A DNA stretch of 64,000 bases from a phage (PZ386977.1), one strand, 5' to 3'. Counted from the first letter of the stretch, positions 1 through 15,391 are shown. The notes: generated by a model from the letters alone, not told the origin. A program made the numbers and translations.

Positions 1-1839
<1,839 letters not shown>

Positions 1840-1866
1840 AAATAAAGCAAATTAAGAGGAATTAAA

Positions 1867-3849
1867 ATGTCACTTCTCTCTCCGGGCGTTGAGCTCAAAG
1901 AAACTACCGTACAGAGTACTGTAGTTAATAACTCCACTGGTACTGCTGCCCTGGCCGGAAAATTCCAATGGGGACCTGCATTCCAGATTAAACAAATCAC
2001 TGATGAAGTTGCATTAGTTGATATGTTTGGTACTCCTAATACGGATACAGCAGATTATTTCATGTCTGCTATGAACTTCCTTCAATATGGTAATGACCTT
2101 CGTGTTGTACGCGCAGTTGACCGTGATACTGCTAAGAACTCATCTCCTGTAGCAGGCAATATTGAATTCACAATCTCTGCTACTGGTAGTAACTATGCAG
2201 TTGGTGATAAAATTATCGTTAAGTATTTGACCGAAACTGTTGAAGCAGATGGTTATGTCACTTCAGTTGATGTCGATGGTAAAATTCTTAACATTTATAT
2301 CCCAACCGGTAAAATTATTGCTCGTGCAAAAGAAATTAATGAATATCCGGCATTGGGTTCTAACTGGACCGCCGAAGTTGCCAGTTCTTCTTCTGGACTT
2401 TCTGGCGTTATTACAATTGGTTCTATCGTAACCGATTCGGGTATTCTGTTAACTGAAGTTGAAACTTCTGAAGAAGCTATTACTTCTCTAACTTTCCAAG
2501 AATCTATTAAAAAATATGGTGTCCCAGGCGTAGTTGCTCTTTATCCTGGTGAACTTGGCGACCAGCTCGAAATTGAAATCGTATCTAAAGCAGACTATGA
2601 CAAAGGTGCTTCAGCCCAGTTAAAAATTTATCCTGATGGTGGTACTCGTGCATCTACGGCTAAAGCAATCTTTGGATATGGCCCACAGTCTGATGACCAA
2701 TATGCAATTATAGTTCGTCGTAACGATGCTGTAGTTCAGAGCGTAGTTCTTTCTACTAAACGTGGTGAACGCGATATTTATGGTAGTAATATCTTTATTG
2801 ATGATTTCTTTGCTAAAGGTGCAAGCAATTATATTTTCGCTACTGCACAAGGTTGGCCAAAAGGTTTCTCTGGCGTAATCAAACTGGGTGGTGGCTTATC
2901 ATCTAATGAAACGGTTGACGCTGGTGATTTAATGGAAGCTTGGGATTTGTTTGCTGACCGCGAATCTGTTAATGCGCAGTTGTTTATTGCAGGTTCTTGT
3001 GCAGGTGAATCTTTAGAAGTTGCTTCTACAGTTCAGAAACATGTTGTAGCAATTGGTGATTCTCGCCAAGATTGTTTGGTTCTTTGCTCACCGCCACGTG
3101 CAACTATAGTCGGTATTCCTGTTAATCGTGCAGTTGATAATCTGGTTGATTGGCGTACTGCGTCAGGAACTTACACTGATAATAACTTTAATGTAAGTTC
3201 TACTTATGCTGCTATTGACGGTAACTATAAATATCAATATGACAAATATAATGACGTGAATCGTTGGGTTCCATTAGCTGCTGATATCGCTGGTCTTTGT
3301 GCTCGTACAGACAATATTTCTCAGCCTTGGATGTCTCCAGCCGGTTATAACCGTGGACAAATTCTTAACGTTATTAAGCTTGCAATTGAAACTCGCCAAG
3401 CGCAGCGTGATCGTTTGTATCAGGAAGCTATTAACCCTGTTACTGGTACCGGTGGTGATGGGTATGTTCTGTACGGTGATAAAACTGCCACTTCTGTTCC
3501 TTCACCATTTGACCGTATTAACGTTCGTCGTTTGTTCAATATGGTTAAAACGAACATTGGTTCAGCATCCAAATATCGCCTGTTTGAATTGAACAACGCA
3601 TTTACCCGTTCTTCTTTCCGTACAGAGACTTCTCAATATCTACAGGGTATTAAAGCTCTCGGTGGTGTATATAACTTTAAAGTTGTTTGTGATACTACCA
3701 ATAACACCCCAGCAGTTATCGACCGTAATGAATTTGTAGCTACTTTCTACTTACAACCAGCCCGCTCGATAAATTATATTACGTTGAACTTTGTAGCAAC
3801 AGCAACTGGTGCCGATTTCGACGAACTAATTGGTGCTGTAGGTGCCTAA
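1867..3849 (+). CDS. 18: tail sheath protein (gp18)
   Basis: 660-aa ORF, size and position match T4 gp18; late promoter and RBS upstream. Confidence 0.93.
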   Translation: MSLLSPGVELKETTVQSTVVNNSTGTAALAGKFQWGPAFQIKQITDEVALVDMFGTPNTDTADYFMSAMNFLQYGNDLRVVRAVDRDTAKNSSPVAGNIEFTISATGSNYAVGDKIIVKYLTETVEADGYVTSVDVDGKILNIYIPTGKIIARAKEINEYPALGSNWTAEVASSSSGLSGVITIGSIVTDSGILLTEVETSEEAITSLTFQESIKKYGVPGVVALYPGELGDQLEIEIVSKADYDKGASAQLKIYPDGGTRASTAKAIFGYGPQSDDQYAIIVRRNDAVVQSVVLSTKRGERDIYGSNIFIDDFFAKGASNYIFATAQGWPKGFSGVIKLGGGLSSNETVDAGDLMEAWDLFADRESVNAQLFIAGSCAGESLEVASTVQKHVVAIGDSRQDCLVLCSPPRATIVGIPVNRAVDNLVDWRTASGTYTDNNFNVSSTYAAIDGNYKYQYDKYNDVNRWVPLAADIAGLCARTDNISQPWMSPAGYNRGQILNVIKLAIETRQAQRDRLYQEAINPVTGTGGDGYVLYGDKTATSVPSPFDRINVRRLFNMVKTNIGSASKYRLFELNNAFTRSSFRTETSQYLQGIKALGGVYNFKVVCDTTNNTPAVIDRNEFVATFYLQPARSINYITLNFVATATGADFDELIGAVGA

Positions 3850-8274: not shown

Positions 8275-9843
8275 ATGACTACTATCAAAACTAAAGCTCA
8301 GCTCGTAGACAAATGGAAAGAACTGCTGGAAGGTGAAGGCCTGCCGGAAATCGCTAATAGCAAGCAGGCTATTATCGCTAAAATCTTCGAAAACCAGGAA
8401 AAAGATTTCGAAGTATCCCCTGAATATAAAGACGAGAAAATCGCTCAGGCATTTGGTTCTTTCTTGACCGAAGCTGAAATTGGTGGTGACCACGGTTATA
8501 ATGCTCAGAACATCGCAGCAGGTCAAACCTCTGGTGCAGTAACCCAAATTGGGCCGGCAGTTATGGGTATGGTTCGTCGTGCTATTCCTAATCTGATCGC
8601 TTTTGATATTTGTGGTGTTCAGCCTATGAACAGCCCTACCGGTCAGGTATTTGCTCTCCGTGCAGTATATGGTAAAGACCCTATCGCTGCTGGCGCTAAA
8701 GAAGCTTTCCATCCGATGTATGCCCCAGACGCGATGTTCTCTGGACAGGGTGCTGCTAAGAAATTCCCAGCTCTGGCTGCTGACACTACTACTGTTGTAG
8801 GTGATATCTATACTCACTTCTTCCAAGAAACTGGTACTGTATATCTGCAAGCTTCTGCTATCGTAACACTTGATTCTGGTGCAACTGATGCAGCTAAATT
8901 AGATGCAGAAGTTAAGAAACAAATGGAAGCTGGTGCACTGGTAGAAATCGCTGAAGGTATGGCTACTTCTATCGCTGAACTCCAGGAAGGTTTCAACGGT
9001 TCTACCGACAACCCGTGGAACGAAATGGGCTTCCGTATCGATAAACAAGTTATCGAAGCTAAATCTCGCCAGCTGAAAGCTGCTTACTCCATCGAATTGG
9101 CACAAGACCTCCGTGCAGTACACGGTATGGATGCTGATGCTGAACTGAGCGGTATTCTGGCTACAGAAATTATGCTAGAAATCAACCGTGAAGTTGTTGA
9201 TTGGATTAACTACTCAGCACAGGTTGGTAAATCTGGTATGACACTGACTCCTGGTTCTAAAGCTGGTGTATTTGACTTCCAGGACCCGATTGATATCCGT
9301 GGTGCTCGTTGGGCCGGTGAAAGCTTTAAATCTCTGTTGTTCCAGATTGATAAAGAAGCAGTTGAAATTGCTCGTCAAACCGGTCGTGGTGAAGGTAACT
9401 TCATTATCGCTTCCCGTAACGTAGTTAACGTACTGGCTTCAGTTGATACTGGTATTTCTTACGCTGCACAAGGTCTGGCTTCTGGTTTTAATACCGACAC
9501 TACTAAGTCTGTATTTGCCGGTGTACTTGGTGGTAAATACCGCGTATACATCGACCAGTATGCTAAACAGGATTATTTCACCGTTGGTTACAAAGGCGCT
9601 AACGAAATGGATGCAGGTATTTACTATGCTCCTTATGTTGCACTTACCCCACTGCGTGGTTCCGATCCTAAGAACTTCCAGCCGGTAATGGGCTTTAAAA
9701 CTCGTTACGGTATCGGTGTTAACCCGTTTGCTGAAAGTTCCCTGCAGGCTCCAGGTGCTCGCATCCAGTCCGGTATGCCGTCTATCCTGAACAGCCTTGG
9801 TAAGAACGCTTACTTCCGCCGTGTATATGTAAAAGGCATCTAA
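8275..9843 (+). CDS. 23: major capsid protein (gp23)
   Basis: 522-aa ORF, T4 gp23 size and position; strongly biased codon usage typical of a highly expressed late gene. Confidence 0.95.
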   Translation: MTTIKTKAQLVDKWKELLEGEGLPEIANSKQAIIAKIFENQEKDFEVSPEYKDEKIAQAFGSFLTEAEIGGDHGYNAQNIAAGQTSGAVTQIGPAVMGMVRRAIPNLIAFDICGVQPMNSPTGQVFALRAVYGKDPIAAGAKEAFHPMYAPDAMFSGQGAAKKFPALAADTTTVVGDIYTHFFQETGTVYLQASAIVTLDSGATDAAKLDAEVKKQMEAGALVEIAEGMATSIAELQEGFNGSTDNPWNEMGFRIDKQVIEAKSRQLKAAYSIELAQDLRAVHGMDADAELSGILATEIMLEINREVVDWINYSAQVGKSGMTLTPGSKAGVFDFQDPIDIRGARWAGESFKSLLFQIDKEAVEIARQTGRGEGNFIIASRNVVNVLASVDTGISYAAQGLASGFNTDTTKSVFAGVLGGKYRVYIDQYAKQDYFTVGYKGANEMDAGIYYAPYVALTPLRGSDPKNFQPVMGFKTRYGIGVNPFAESSLQAPGARIQSGMPSILNSLGKNAYFRRVYVKGI

Positions 9844-12701: not shown

Positions 12702-12953
12702 TTAGAACTTGATTTCTATCCAGTGCCCATCACGTTGGTCGTGATTAATTTTGTACTGAAAGCCATTATCACGTAACCACTGCCCGACTTGCTCGGTGAT
12801 AGTTAAATCATTCTTTGATGGATAGTACGTGAATTGTGTCTGGCCTTTATCAGCGGCTTTCTCTGCCATCACAGAGAAGTTAGTAATAAAATCACTCAAC
12901 AAATTAGCTTTAGTGGCCAGCGCCCTTTCTCTTAATTCCTGTGCAAAACTCAT
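12702..12953 (-). CDS. hypothetical protein (83 aa), positional counterpart of T4 24.2
   Basis: ORF overlapping the next by ATGA. Confidence 0.55.
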   Translation of the reverse strand: MSFAQELRERALATKANLLSDFITNFSVMAEKAADKGQTQFTYYPSKNDLTITEQVGQWLRDNGFQYKINHDQRDGHWIEIKF

Positions 12954-13150
12954 TTCTTCACCTTTTTGTTAATAAAACGTTTACGGTATACAACTTTTTC
13001 TTTTGCTTTAAACTTTGACCGAGCTGTCTCGGCTTTAGTCCATAGTAATCCAACTTCTTTAGGTTGTAAACCGATTTTTTGAGCAATTTCTACGAATGAA
13101 AATCCTGCCTCATGTAATGTATAAACTTCAACTTCAGCTCTCATAATCAA
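12950..13150 (-). CDS. hypothetical small protein (66 aa) with helix-turn-helix-like segment and basic tail
   Basis: segment GFSFVEIAQKIGLQPKEVG resembles an HTH; positional counterpart of T4 24.3. Confidence 0.5.
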   Translation of the reverse strand: MIMRAEVEVYTLHEAGFSFVEIAQKIGLQPKEVGLLWTKAETARSKFKAKEKVVYRKRFINKKVKK

Positions 13151-13209: not shown

Positions 13210-13238
13210 TTTAAAACGAAGAAAGGGGCCGAAGCCCC
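13210..13238 (-). terminator. intrinsic terminator after hoc (GGGGC-UUCG-GCCCC hairpin plus U-rich tract)
   Basis: hairpin 13225..13238 followed on the minus strand by UUUCUUCGUUUU. Confidence 0.7.
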
Positions 13239-13244
13239 TTACGA

Positions 13245-14663
13245 TTATGGATATGTATAGATGATACCAGTTTCCAAAGCAGTTTTATGGATGATGTATC
13301 CATTACGTGATTCTTGAACATCAACTTCAGGATAGTCTTTCATCATCTTCTGAAGAGTGTAACGATGCAAGTAGTACTTACTATCCGGGTCGTCGGTTTT
13401 CCAATCTTTACCTTCTTCAGTCATTTTTTGGATTTCATCCATAACCCACCAACCGCACCAGATGTAAGCTGAAGTACGATGTGGAAGAGGATGAACATAA
13501 GGTAATTCACCTTCTGGTTCCGGAGCAACTTTATCAGTTACCTGAACTTGACCTTCTGCTGTAATAGTTTTGCTATCGTAATCAGTTGCAGTAATAGTTG
13601 CAGTAACTTCAATAGTTTGACTTCCAATAGACGAGGTATCAACGGTATATACATTAGTTGACCCTTCTACAGGAGAAGAATCTTTCTTCCATGAATAAGT
13701 AATTTGTGCTTCTGGTGGTGCATCAGTGACATTAGCAGTAAATGTGGCTGAAGCGTCTTGCTGAACATTAATAGAAGGAGGGGTCAACGTAACCTGTGGA
13801 TTCATTGTCTTCTTATTTACTGTCAAAGACACTGGTGACGATTCTACTGTTTTATCATCATAATTGGTTGCAGTCACCGTGACAGAACAAGTTATAGACT
13901 TAGTTCCTTCAGATGTTGGTATATATTTAAAGGTTGATTGCGTTTTACCACTAATAGTAGAACCATCAACTTTCCATGTATAAGCAATAACGGCACTAGC
14001 AGGTTGATTGCTTACATTAGCAGTGAATGTTGTTGCTGTTCCAATTTCTACTGCCGCCGGAGAAGCCGGAGTTACAGCCAATGTGGTGGTCTGAGCCTTT
14101 TTATTAACAGTCAATGATACTTCATTAGAAGTAACTTGTTTAGCATCATAATCCGTCGCAGTTACTTGGGCCACACATTTAATTTTTTTAACTCCGCTTG
14201 TGGTAGGAGTGTAATTGAATGTAGCAGAAGTTGCTTCGCTCACAGGAGAACCATCTACATACCACTGATAAGTAGCAGATGCGCCTGAAGGTTGAGAAGC
14301 TAAAGCCGCAGTAAATTTAACAGCTGTTCCGATTACTCCAGCAGCAGGGCTATCAGGAGTTATAGCCAGAGTAGTTGTCTGAGTTTTATTTTTAACCGTG
14401 ATAGTCGTAGTAATTTCTGCTGTTTCAGCTTCAGCTTCTGGAACTGTATTTGTTGCAACTACTTTAATAGTCTTTTGACCGGCAGGTCCCTTTAGTATAT
14501 AACTAAAAGTTGCTTCAGCTCCATCTTGTGGAACATCATCCACAGTCCAAGCATATGTAATAGTTCCACCTTCAGCCTGACCATCTGGTGTGGCAGTAAA
14601 CTGCTGAGTCTGTCCTATAACTCCAGTAGGTGTTTTAGGAGTTATATTAACTGTAAAAGCCAT
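13245..14663 (-). CDS. hoc: Hoc outer capsid decoration protein, with four tandem Ig-like domains plus a capsid-binding C-terminal domain
   Basis: 472-aa ORF; four repeated units of about 95 aa with conserved T-A-T-[DN]-Y-D motifs; C-terminal WCGWW region; located between 24.x ORFs and inh as in T4. Confidence 0.88.
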   Translation of the reverse strand: MAFTVNITPKTPTGVIGQTQQFTATPDGQAEGGTITYAWTVDDVPQDGAEATFSYILKGPAGQKTIKVVATNTVPEAEAETAEITTTITVKNKTQTTTLAITPDSPAAGVIGTAVKFTAALASQPSGASATYQWYVDGSPVSEATSATFNYTPTTSGVKKIKCVAQVTATDYDAKQVTSNEVSLTVNKKAQTTTLAVTPASPAAVEIGTATTFTANVSNQPASAVIAYTWKVDGSTISGKTQSTFKYIPTSEGTKSITCSVTVTATNYDDKTVESSPVSLTVNKKTMNPQVTLTPPSINVQQDASATFTANVTDAPPEAQITYSWKKDSSPVEGSTNVYTVDTSSIGSQTIEVTATITATDYDSKTITAEGQVQVTDKVAPEPEGELPYVHPLPHRTSAYIWCGWWVMDEIQKMTEEGKDWKTDDPDSKYYLHRYTLQKMMKDYPEVDVQESRNGYIIHKTALETGIIYTYP

Positions 14664-14672
14664 AAGTTATCC

Positions 14673-15341
14673 TTATTTTAATGTTATGAAAGAAGAATTA
14701 CGAGTTTCACGAATTAGAACTGATCCATCGCGATTAATATAATAAATTAAGCTAAATAATGTTTGGTGAGCAGAAGCATGTACAAAACTAGTTGGGCGAG
14801 ATTTCCAATCTGGGGTTTCGGCTATCCATTGATAAATCCACCAAGGAACAGTAACATATCCTGGGGCTTTGCCTAATTTAATTAGTGTAGGACTAAAATT
14901 TTCAGGCAGAACAAATTTTACTTCTTTATTTACCTCTGTCTCAGACTCTTTTTCAGATTCAACAACCTGAGTAATTGCTTCTTCGAATTTATCATGGTCG
15001 AATTCTTTTTCTTGTTCGACAACTTCTAATACTTCAACTTGTTCTGTTGGAGAATCAAACAACAGAATAGCTTCTTCTTTAACTTCTTCGTTAGTGAAAT
15101 TAACACCGTCCACATCATCTGCGGCAGTAATTAAATCAGTGATAGATAATCCATCAGTTTCAGGTAATGGTTCATCAGCCAGTGCGTTAAGAGCTTCTTC
15201 GATATCAATAACAATATTATCGAATGATTTTGTTTTCTTAACACTAATGCCAAATTGTTCCGCATATTCAAACAGTTTAGCTTTGGCTTCCTTTTTATCA
15301 GAAAGAGCACGTAACTCTTCAATATAGTCTTTATCGATCAT
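14673..15341 (-). CDS. inh: Inh, inhibitor of prohead protease
   Basis: 222-aa acidic ORF immediately upstream of hoc on the same strand, as in T4. Confidence 0.65.
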   Translation of the reverse strand: MIDKDYIEELRALSDKKEAKAKLFEYAEQFGISVKKTKSFDNIVIDIEEALNALADEPLPETDGLSITDLITAADDVDGVNFTNEEVKEEAILLFDSPTEQVEVLEVVEQEKEFDHDKFEEAITQVVESEKESETEVNKEVKFVLPENFSPTLIKLGKAPGYVTVPWWIYQWIAETPDWKSRPTSFVHASAHQTLFSLIYYINRDGSVLIRETRNSSFITLK

Positions 15342-15354
15342 GATATTTCCTCAT

Positions 15355-15362
15355 TATAAATA
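15355..15362 (+). promoter_or_regulatory. late promoter TATAAATA upstream of uvsW
   Basis: TATAAATA 30 nt upstream of the uvsW ATG. Confidence 0.6.
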
Positions 15363-15391
15363 TAACTATATTTATTACATGGTAATTTGAC

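Follow-up and report, generated by a model that had tools for sequence, protein, structure and literature searches.

Four-domain Hoc of a Mosigvirus coliphage: a mosaic allele with an RB69-like third Ig domain of probable recombinant origin

The hoc gene in the stretch of phage DNA analysed here (PZ386977.1; 64,000 nt, termed the window throughout) very probably encodes the standard Hoc fibre of a Mosigvirus phage in the form of a mosaic allele, its third Ig-like domain having been acquired through out-of-register recombination with an RB69-type hoc. Members of the Hoc family are present as one copy at the centre of each hexamer of the major capsid protein gp23 and are dispensable for growth. 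Judged by sequence, the window's Hoc is a new allele of a well-known protein, with an architecture that is itself known and common; the exact protein was absent from a collection of 15 billion sequences on look-up, P0009, which comes nearest among the cluster representatives, is 95% identical overall, and the nearest GenBank gene, that of vB_EcoM-pEB20 (pEB20), is 90.4% identical overall at the nucleotide (nt) level.

Gene, Ig-like domains and capsid anchor

Translation of the minus strand gives an intact frame from the ATG at 14663-14661 to the stop at 13247-13245; a plus-strand reading of 13245-14663 meets many stops, and the gene was therefore placed on the minus strand. The 472-aa product matches PHROG 1149, 'Hoc-like head decoration' (E 1.3e-145), and the T4 Hoc chain 5vf3_Z (E 9.9e-207), in agreement with the identity assigned by an initial sequence-only reading of the DNA. 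Its computed pI of 4.80 is acidic like those of other Hocs (T4 4.74, RB69 4.72, both equal to the published values; supplement of PMC10385173). The locus and its docking partner comprise the following features:

8275..9843 (+): gp23 major capsid protein, the docking partner of Hoc, 95% identical to T4 gp23
12702..13150 (-): homologues of T4 24.3 and 24.2, downstream neighbours (PHROGs 1566 and 2416; 97–100% nt to RB69)
13213..13240 (-): intrinsic-terminator-like, GC-rich hairpin AAGGGGCTTCGGCCCCTT with a T-rich tail, 5 nt after the hoc stop (terminator scan and sequence)
13245..14663 (-): hoc coding sequence, 472 aa plus stop (ORF list, translation, PHROG 1149, T4 Hoc chain 5vf3_Z)
13248..13529 (-): C-terminal capsid-binding domain, aa 379-472, aligning with T4 Hoc 283-376
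13530..13808 (-): Ig-like domain 4, aa 286-378, orthologue of T4 domain 3; 132.0 bits in the unit profile
13809..14096 (-): Ig-like domain 3, aa 190-285, missing from T4 (a gap in the T4 alignment); its core resembles an RB69-type domain-2 module
13809..14081 (-): RB69-like tract, approximate; left junction within 14081-14064 (TPASPAA), right junction within 13833-13809 (VSLTVNKK)
14097..14384 (-): Ig-like domain 2, T4-type, aa 94-189, ending in VSLTVNKK; 135.1 bits
14385..14663 (-): Ig-like domain 1, T4-type, aa 1-93; 127.6 bits
14670..14674 (-): Shine-Dalgarno-like AAGGA, 6 nt before the hoc ATG and overlapping the inh stop codon (read from the sequence)
14673..15341 (-): inh, prohead protease inhibitor, upstream neighbour (PHROG 1051, E 6.7e-91; 97–100% nt to RB69)

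The wider neighbourhood, from ORFs and PHROG matches, consists of uvsW, inh, hoc, 24.3, 24.2, rnlB, gene 24 and gene 23, and the order from uvsW to gene 24 is that of RB69, T4, FP43 and ATK47, with the difference that T4 carries segE between inh and uvsW, a gene lacking from the window. Terminators are annotated at the matching place in DalCa and ATK47. Upstream on the minus strand, an exact match to the T4 late promoter TATAAATA was absent near hoc and inh, and sigma-70-like matches were no better than those of shuffled sequences; a near match to the late promoter was seen by eye upstream of inh. The 3′ end of inh is conserved across genera, its last ~200 nt being 89–99% identical even to T4, HP3 and DalCa. 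The genes flanking hoc are 97–100% identical to RB69 but only 48–79% to T4 at the nt level, and window positions 20000-44000 are ~97% identical to JM17, ATK47, O157 typing phage 3, pEB20 and 'Mosigvirus mar005p1'; by these comparisons the source phage is a Mosigvirus (RB69-like) coliphage rather than a T4-like one, a point missed in the sequence-only reading.

Residues 1-189 of the product align with T4 Hoc 1-189 and residues 278-472 with T4 182-376, so that the protein amounts to T4 Hoc plus one unit of 96 aa, placed at residues 190-285 by the alignment to 5vf3_Z. Searched with a profile of its own four units, the window's Hoc yields four domains (1-93, 94-188, 190-284 and 286-378; 128–135 bits each) and T4 Hoc three. 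Pairwise local scores between Ig units stand at z = 7 to 30 against 200 shuffles, those between Ig units and the C-terminal domain lie below 0 by the same measure, and the repetition of the Ig units is far beyond chance. The Pfam models PKD, Ig_3, Ig_2 and I-set all exceed their curated cut-offs, and an AlphaFold2 model (29-sequence alignment) contains four all-beta domains with the form of a beta-sandwich, with pLDDT mostly 84–96 over residues 1-378. The best Foldseek matches in the PDB are crystal fragments of four consecutive Ig domains, from Dscam1 and ICAM-5 D1-D4; multi-Ig eukaryotic fragments prevail, and phage Hoc structures were not among the top 50 matches.

The sequence-only reading had counted four Ig-like domains against the three of T4, and among the checks it proposed, structure prediction (AlphaFold2) and alignment with T4 Hoc returned that count, while domain annotation (Pfam) and alignment of the repeats with one another agreed with Ig-like repeats; with four domains and 472 aa, the product falls outside the three-Ig T4-type architecture of exactly three domains in 376 aa. 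The repeats are 26–58% identical (aa), too diverged for a recent in-situ duplication, as had also been claimed. The motifs proposed for the units held in part: T-x-T-[FL]-T-A-x-V has no literal match but its core F-T-A occurs in all four; Y-x-W-[KY]-x-D is confined to units 2-4, its Y-x-W being present in all four; and V-T-A-T-[DN]-Y-D is found, as [VI]-T-A-T-[DN]-Y-D, in units 2-4 and is absent from unit 1. A further motif, VSLTVNKK, occurs twice in the protein, at aa 182-189 and 278-285.

The C-terminal domain, with WCGWW at aa 402-406, is near-identical to 5vf3_Z throughout its alignment. The T4 Hoc residues for which contact with gp23 or a role in holding the binding loop has been reported (Y293, H295, H299, R300, W306, W309, W310, D313 and E355-G359; PMC10385173) are all kept at an offset of +96 (Y389, H391, H395, R396, W402, W405, W406, D409 and E451-G455), which upholds the earlier designation of the WCGWW-containing domain as the capsid anchor. 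Its fold is assigned from sequence identity to T4 because the AlphaFold2 model is of low confidence there (pLDDT < 50 for residues 382-406 and 446-472). The Hoc-contact stretch G326-R344 of T4 gp23 (contact region from PMC10385173) is identical in the window's gp23, and the docking determinants are thus conserved on both partners. The mechanism is therefore taken to be that of Hoc, in which the conserved C-terminal alpha/beta domain would dock on the centre of the gp23 hexamer and the Ig-like string, here of four domains, one more than in T4, would point outward from the capsid. The resulting fibre, of a protein with an expected mass of about 50.5 kDa, would exceed the ~18 nm of T4 by roughly one Ig domain, about 4 nm.

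Domain number among Hoc relatives

Comparison with database relatives presents domain number as a normal polymorphism of hoc, with three-, four- and five-Ig alleles circulating in Tequatrovirus and Mosigvirus. The prevalence sample consisted of the 120 best-scoring database cluster representatives, in which the unit profile described above counted three Ig-like domains in 81, four in 30 and five in nine; length tracked this count without exception (374–376 aa for three, 468–472 aa for four, 567–570 aa for five), and several of the four-Ig clusters hold tens to more than 100 member sequences. Among GenBank phages, tblastn gave a Hoc-like match in 1371 records, with at least 80% identity in ~212; ten rows sampled from this upper band all span ~1416 nt, three-Ig genes (~1128 nt) begin just below it, and full-length four-Ig Hocs are put at about 200 GenBank phage records. 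The sampled rows also include the two-Ig Hoc of PNJ-9 and the very long Hoc of Muldoon.

The RB69 Hoc sequence is two decades old. It has 471 aa and four Ig-like domains (NP_861884), as does that of DalCa; published homologues carry from 1 to 10 Ig-like domains (10 in Muldoon, 1–2 in others; PMC10385173), and a two-Ig variant has been described (PMC11853027). The sequence-only reading had implied that four domains are unusual, an impression contradicted by RB69, by the 30 four-Ig proteins among the 120 representatives, by the ~212 GenBank matches and by the range in the literature. The discovery value of the count is accordingly small, four- to ten-Ig Hocs being already in databases and the literature. 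Different alleles occur on Mosigvirus backbones:

ATK47 and JM17: Hoc of 376 aa, T4-type, three Ig-like domains; Mosigvirus backbone, among the best matches to window positions 20000-44000 (~97% identical)
FP43 and Mizar: Hoc of 472 aa, T4-type, four Ig-like domains; listed within Mosigvirus
RB69: Hoc of 471 aa, RB69-type, four Ig-like domains; listed within Mosigvirus

Hoc domain number varies, then, even between backbones that are ~97% identical. That four Ig-like domains are the norm of the genus, as RB69 had suggested, is ruled out by the three-Ig, 376-aa Hocs of ATK47 and JM17. DalCa, a Tequatrovirus, bears an RB69-type hoc; viewed as cassettes, T4-type Ig strings sit on Mosigvirus backbones and an RB69-type one on that of DalCa. 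The five-Ig Hocs (567–570 aa, e.g. UGKSEcP1 and the cluster representative P0033), the two-Ig Hoc of PNJ-9 and the ten-Ig Hoc of Muldoon follow the same plan as the window's Hoc, in which a conserved C-terminal anchor carries an Ig string of variable domain number, and differ from its four in the number of units. The three-domain Hoc of T4 is one of several common alleles, which is relevant to comparisons made with T4 only.

Mosaic composition and origin of the third domain

T4 Hoc (NP_049793, 376 aa; PDB 5VF3, 8T1X; model PMC10385173) occupies the same slot between inh and 24.3, on a Tequatrovirus backbone where the window's is Mosigvirus; its domains 1 and 2 and its last Ig are orthologous to the window's (82–85% aa), and the window's additional Ig (aa 190-285) lies between T4 domains 2 and 3. 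RB69 Hoc shares with the window the genus backbone, the flanks, the four-Ig count and the C-terminal domain, but domains 1, 2 and 4 of the window are only 60%, at most 58% and ~43% identical (aa) to their RB69 counterparts. Outside pEB20, nothing lies closer to the window's domain 3 than RB69 domain 2; the module stands in slot 3 in the window and in slot 2 in RB69, whose own domain 3 is without a counterpart in the window.

The individual domains differ in their affinities. At the nt level, domain 1 is 95% identical to domain 1 of FP43 and Mizar, 85% to that of T4 and 66% to that of RB69, and domain 2 is 94% identical to domain 2 of FP43 and 80% to that of T4; domain 4 is 96% identical to domain 4 of pEB20, 91% to that of HP3 and 83% to T4 domain 3. 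Domain 3 is 97% identical to domain 3 of pEB20 and, with an offset of one repeat, 86% (80% aa) to RB69 domain 2, but only 60–62% to the window's own domain 2 or to any T4-type domain. A tblastn search with domain 3 alone returned pEB20 at 98.9%, ~31 RB69-type records at 78–84% and the next match at 61%; among the 120 relatives, only P0009 (99%) and P0033, in its third domain (78%), came close.

Slot by slot, the nearest reference domains in both the window and pEB20 are T4 domain 1, T4 domain 2, RB69 domain 2 and T4 domain 3. On these identities the allele is composed of a T4-type domain 1, a T4-type domain 2, an RB69-type domain 2, a T4-type last Ig and the C-terminal domain, a composition that the sequence-only reading missed. 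An RB69-type allele would have its domains 1-4 orthologous and in register with RB69; in register, the Ig region of the window is only 42–69% identical (nt) to RB69, and domain 3 is the only domain that resembles RB69, its likeness being to RB69 domain 2. The allele is likewise distinct from the FP43/HP3 form, its domain 3 being 57% (aa) and 61–62% (nt) identical to domain 3 of FP43 and HP3, and it agrees with a pEB20-like, chimeric T4/RB69 four-Ig allele. Among GenBank phage records, pEB20 was the only one found with this arrangement, which is also that of the P0009 cluster (nine member sequences; domain 3 99%). Literature searches on hoc mosaicism and on Mosigvirus Hoc found no relevant paper.

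The T4-type four-Ig Hocs, those of FP43, Mizar, HP3 and about 200 GenBank records, have the same 472 aa and frame as the window, whose domains 1 and 2 are 92–97% identical (aa) to FP43 and whose domain 4 is 92–95% identical to FP43 and HP3. They differ in the third domain, which in this class is a close paralogue of domain 2 (74–85% aa) and in the window is RB69-domain-2-like, with 57–58% identity to theirs. The pEB20 Hoc (UYE94979, 472 aa, Mosigvirus), with which the backbone is shared, is ~98% identical (aa) in domain 3 and 99% in domain 4, but 75–81% (79–82% nt) in domains 1-2, the 5′ half of the window's gene being FP43/Mizar-like. At the nt level this half (domains 1-2) is 94–95% identical to FP43 and Mizar and 79–82% to pEB20, and from domain 3 onward identity to pEB20 is 96–100%; in a sliding window, the switch from FP43/Mizar-like (93–100%) to pEB20-like (98–100%) sequence falls near 14130.

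The limits of the RB69-like tract were obtained by nt alignment with RB69 hoc at an offset of one repeat (288 nt). In this register long identical runs, reaching ~70 nt, extend from gene nt ~586 to 855, with divergence beyond; FP43 and HP3 show the reverse, diverging inside the tract and matching outside it. The most likely source of domain 3 is an RB69-type hoc allele that recombined homologously in a register shifted by one repeat, with crossovers at the conserved repeat borders TPASPAA and VSLTVNKK; in a further exchange, an FP43-like 5′ half would have been combined with a pEB20-like 3′ half. The same comparisons argue for recombination rather than in-situ duplication, with the route itself a probable one. 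On either side of the variable Ig part lies a segment with 89–100% identity in every comparator, one of the two being the last ~200 nt of inh, and such conserved segments would be natural sites for homologous exchange of the whole Ig cassette.

A simpler event of this kind is seen in P0033 (567 aa, 24 member sequences), in which T4-type domains 1-2, the second 99% identical to FP43, are followed by domains 2, 3 and 4 and the C-terminal domain of RB69 at 96–99%. Its sequence is that of a single plain out-of-register crossover giving five Ig-like domains, and shows that such crossovers occur; P0033 keeps the RB69 series after its T4-type domains, whereas the window reverts to T4-type sequence after one RB69-like unit. 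A point against this reading is that the donor was not RB69 itself: the match is 86% (nt), and a central stretch at gene nt ~700-735 is more divergent, which implies either an event that is not recent or an unsampled donor. Present-day sequences do not reveal in which direction or order the exchanges took place.

An unlikely alternative to this recombination with an RB69-type allele is that four Ig-like domains are ancestral, the T4-type three-Ig form having arisen by repeat deletion through unequal crossing-over at VSLTVNKK. This motif closes domains 2 and 3 alike, T4 Hoc equals the window's sequence minus exactly residues 190-285, and the occurrence of three- and four-Ig alleles on near-identical backbones makes changes in both directions likely; the third domains of RB69-, FP43- and window-type alleles, however, are not orthologous, that of RB69 being at most 36% identical to T4 domains and 40% to RB69 domain 2, that of FP43 being closest to T4 domain 2 and that of the window to RB69 domain 2. 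Several independent gains or exchanges are therefore favoured over one ancestral four-Ig form. Four-domain ancestry concerns polarity only and is compatible with a mosaic origin of the window allele.

Less probable still is a tandem duplication of domain 2 within the window's own lineage followed by divergence in place, an in-situ origin that the sequence-only reading had implied. Ordinary T4-type four-Ig Hocs would fit such a history, domain 3 being 74–85% identical (aa) to domain 2 in 28 of the 29 database proteins of 472 aa, a pattern that marks tandem duplication; it recurs in most T4-type alleles with four or five Ig-like domains, all additional Hoc domains among the 120 relatives belong to the domain-2 family, and the window's domain 3 begins with 15 residues (AQTTTLAVTPASPAA) that are T4-domain-2-like. 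In the window, however, domains 2 and 3 are 58% identical (aa), and domain 3 is far nearer at the nt level to RB69 domain 2 (86%) than to its own domain 2 or to every T4-type domain 2 or 3 (~60%), with which the implied duplication does not agree; divergence in place would not converge on another allele to the extent of sharing identical runs of ~70 nt with RB69. Duplication is thereby largely refuted, and could be rescued only if the RB69-type domain 2 derived from a window-type allele.

An assembly artefact, in which reads of two co-occurring hoc alleles were collapsed or misjoined across the repeat, can practically be dismissed, for although tandem repeats and mixtures of phages are well known to cause mis-assembly, the arrangement occurs independently in pEB20 (domain 3 98.9% aa, 97% nt) and in the P0009 cluster, the reading frame is intact, and the repeats, among which long direct DNA repeats able to drive recombination in cis within hoc were absent, share only short stretches of 62–86% identity (period 282–288 nt), too little to mislead an assembler.

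Adhesion and exchange of the Ig string

In the mucus-adherence (BAM) function of Hoc, mucin glycans such as fucosylated MUC2 are bound by Ig-like domains. The literature on it concerns other alleles (PMC11853027, PMC9271167, PMC11150434), and the mucin- or fucose-binding determinants reported differ by allele, lying in domain 1 in the case of PNJ-6, where domain 2 ends (S183-L184-T185) in that of PNJ-9, and at D246 in domain 3 of T4 (PMC11853027; PMC9271167). T4 D246 corresponds to D342 in domain 4 of the window's Hoc and is conserved; the key SLT residues of PNJ-9 would fall in VSLTVNKK, present twice in the window's protein. By computed pI, the window's domain 3 (6.3) is less acidic than FP43 domain 3 (4.55) or RB69 domain 2 (4.40). 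All three observations serve as leads only. An effect of the extra domain on attachment, as the sequence-only reading proposed, is plausible. Near-isogenic backbones with naturally occurring alleles of three, four and five Ig-like domains would offer ready material for relating mucus adherence, aggregation and immunogenicity to fibre length and domain content, and such comparisons are relevant to phage therapy and to T4-display vaccines.

The window allele and P0033 illustrate how domain number may change through recombination one repeat out of register. With about even confidence, the Ig part of hoc may be regarded more generally as an exchangeable, length-polymorphic cassette that moves both ways between Mosigvirus and Tequatrovirus, with out-of-register crossovers at the conserved repeat borders resetting both the composition and the number of its domains (three, four or five). 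Should fibre length or the assortment of domains influence adhesion or dispersion, such exchange would amount to a recombination-driven tuning of the capsid surface, of which the window allele would be one product.

Hoc cassettes in Tequatrovirus and Mosigvirus

Hoc cassettes have crossed genus lines in both directions, from Tequatrovirus to Mosigvirus and from Mosigvirus to Tequatrovirus, as seen in three of the comparator phages, of which ATK47 and JM17 have backbones ~97% identical to that of the window and carry a three-Ig, T4-type hoc.

Hoc genes of a type found in the other genus, with coordinates
DalCa (L003, NC_054908; Tequatrovirus), 1713-3128: RB69-type, four-Ig
ATK47 (L009; Mosigvirus), 1429-2559: T4-type, three-Ig
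JM17 (L010; Mosigvirus), 2226-3356: T4-type, three-Ig

Public records contain annotation errors: FP43 hoc (L004, MN648445, 2501-3919) is entered as 'baseplate wedge subunit', and a 472-aa Hoc cluster (P0032) as 'endonuclease [Shigella sonnei]'. A further error is in the HP3 record (L006, NC_041919), whose taxonomy line reads Rosemountvirus, although both the gene order of its hoc region and hoc itself are T4-type.

Domain order in four-Ig and five-Ig alleles

Within the T4-type four-Ig alleles of FP43, Mizar (L005) and HP3, T4 domain 2 is nearer to domain 3 than to domain 2 (in FP43, 91% nucleotide identity for domain 3 vs 77% for domain 2). It is thus ambiguous, or allele-dependent, whether domain 2 or domain 3 counts as the 'extra' one compared with T4. 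A five-Ig Hoc of 567 aa, representing a database cluster of 24 member sequences (P0033), is a clean out-of-register hybrid: its domains 1-2 are of T4/FP43 type, and everything after them corresponds, at 96-99% identity, to domains 2-3-4 plus the C-terminus of RB69 Hoc.

Surroundings of the cassette

Upstream of hoc, inh and uvsW are divergent neighbours separated by a gap of only ~50 nt (window 15342-15391). T4 carries the homing-endonuclease gene segE at this site; the window, like RB69, lacks it, and JM17 has an additional 744-nt ORF there. Across the 64-kb window there are 18 copies of the T4 late-promoter motif TATAAATA vs 7.4 expected, a count reached in 0/100 shuffles. Most of them are plus-strand copies within the first 12.6 kb, where the head genes lie, a pattern consistent with T4-type late transcription.

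Identity in all comparators, T4 included, is 89-100% for both the inh 3' end (window 14711-14846) and the region coding for Hoc's C-terminal domain (window 13271-13541). Between genera, far more divergence is seen in the middle of inh (48-63% identity) and in the hoc Ig region. The inh 3' end and the Hoc C-terminal coding region look like recombination linkers on either side of the variable cassette.
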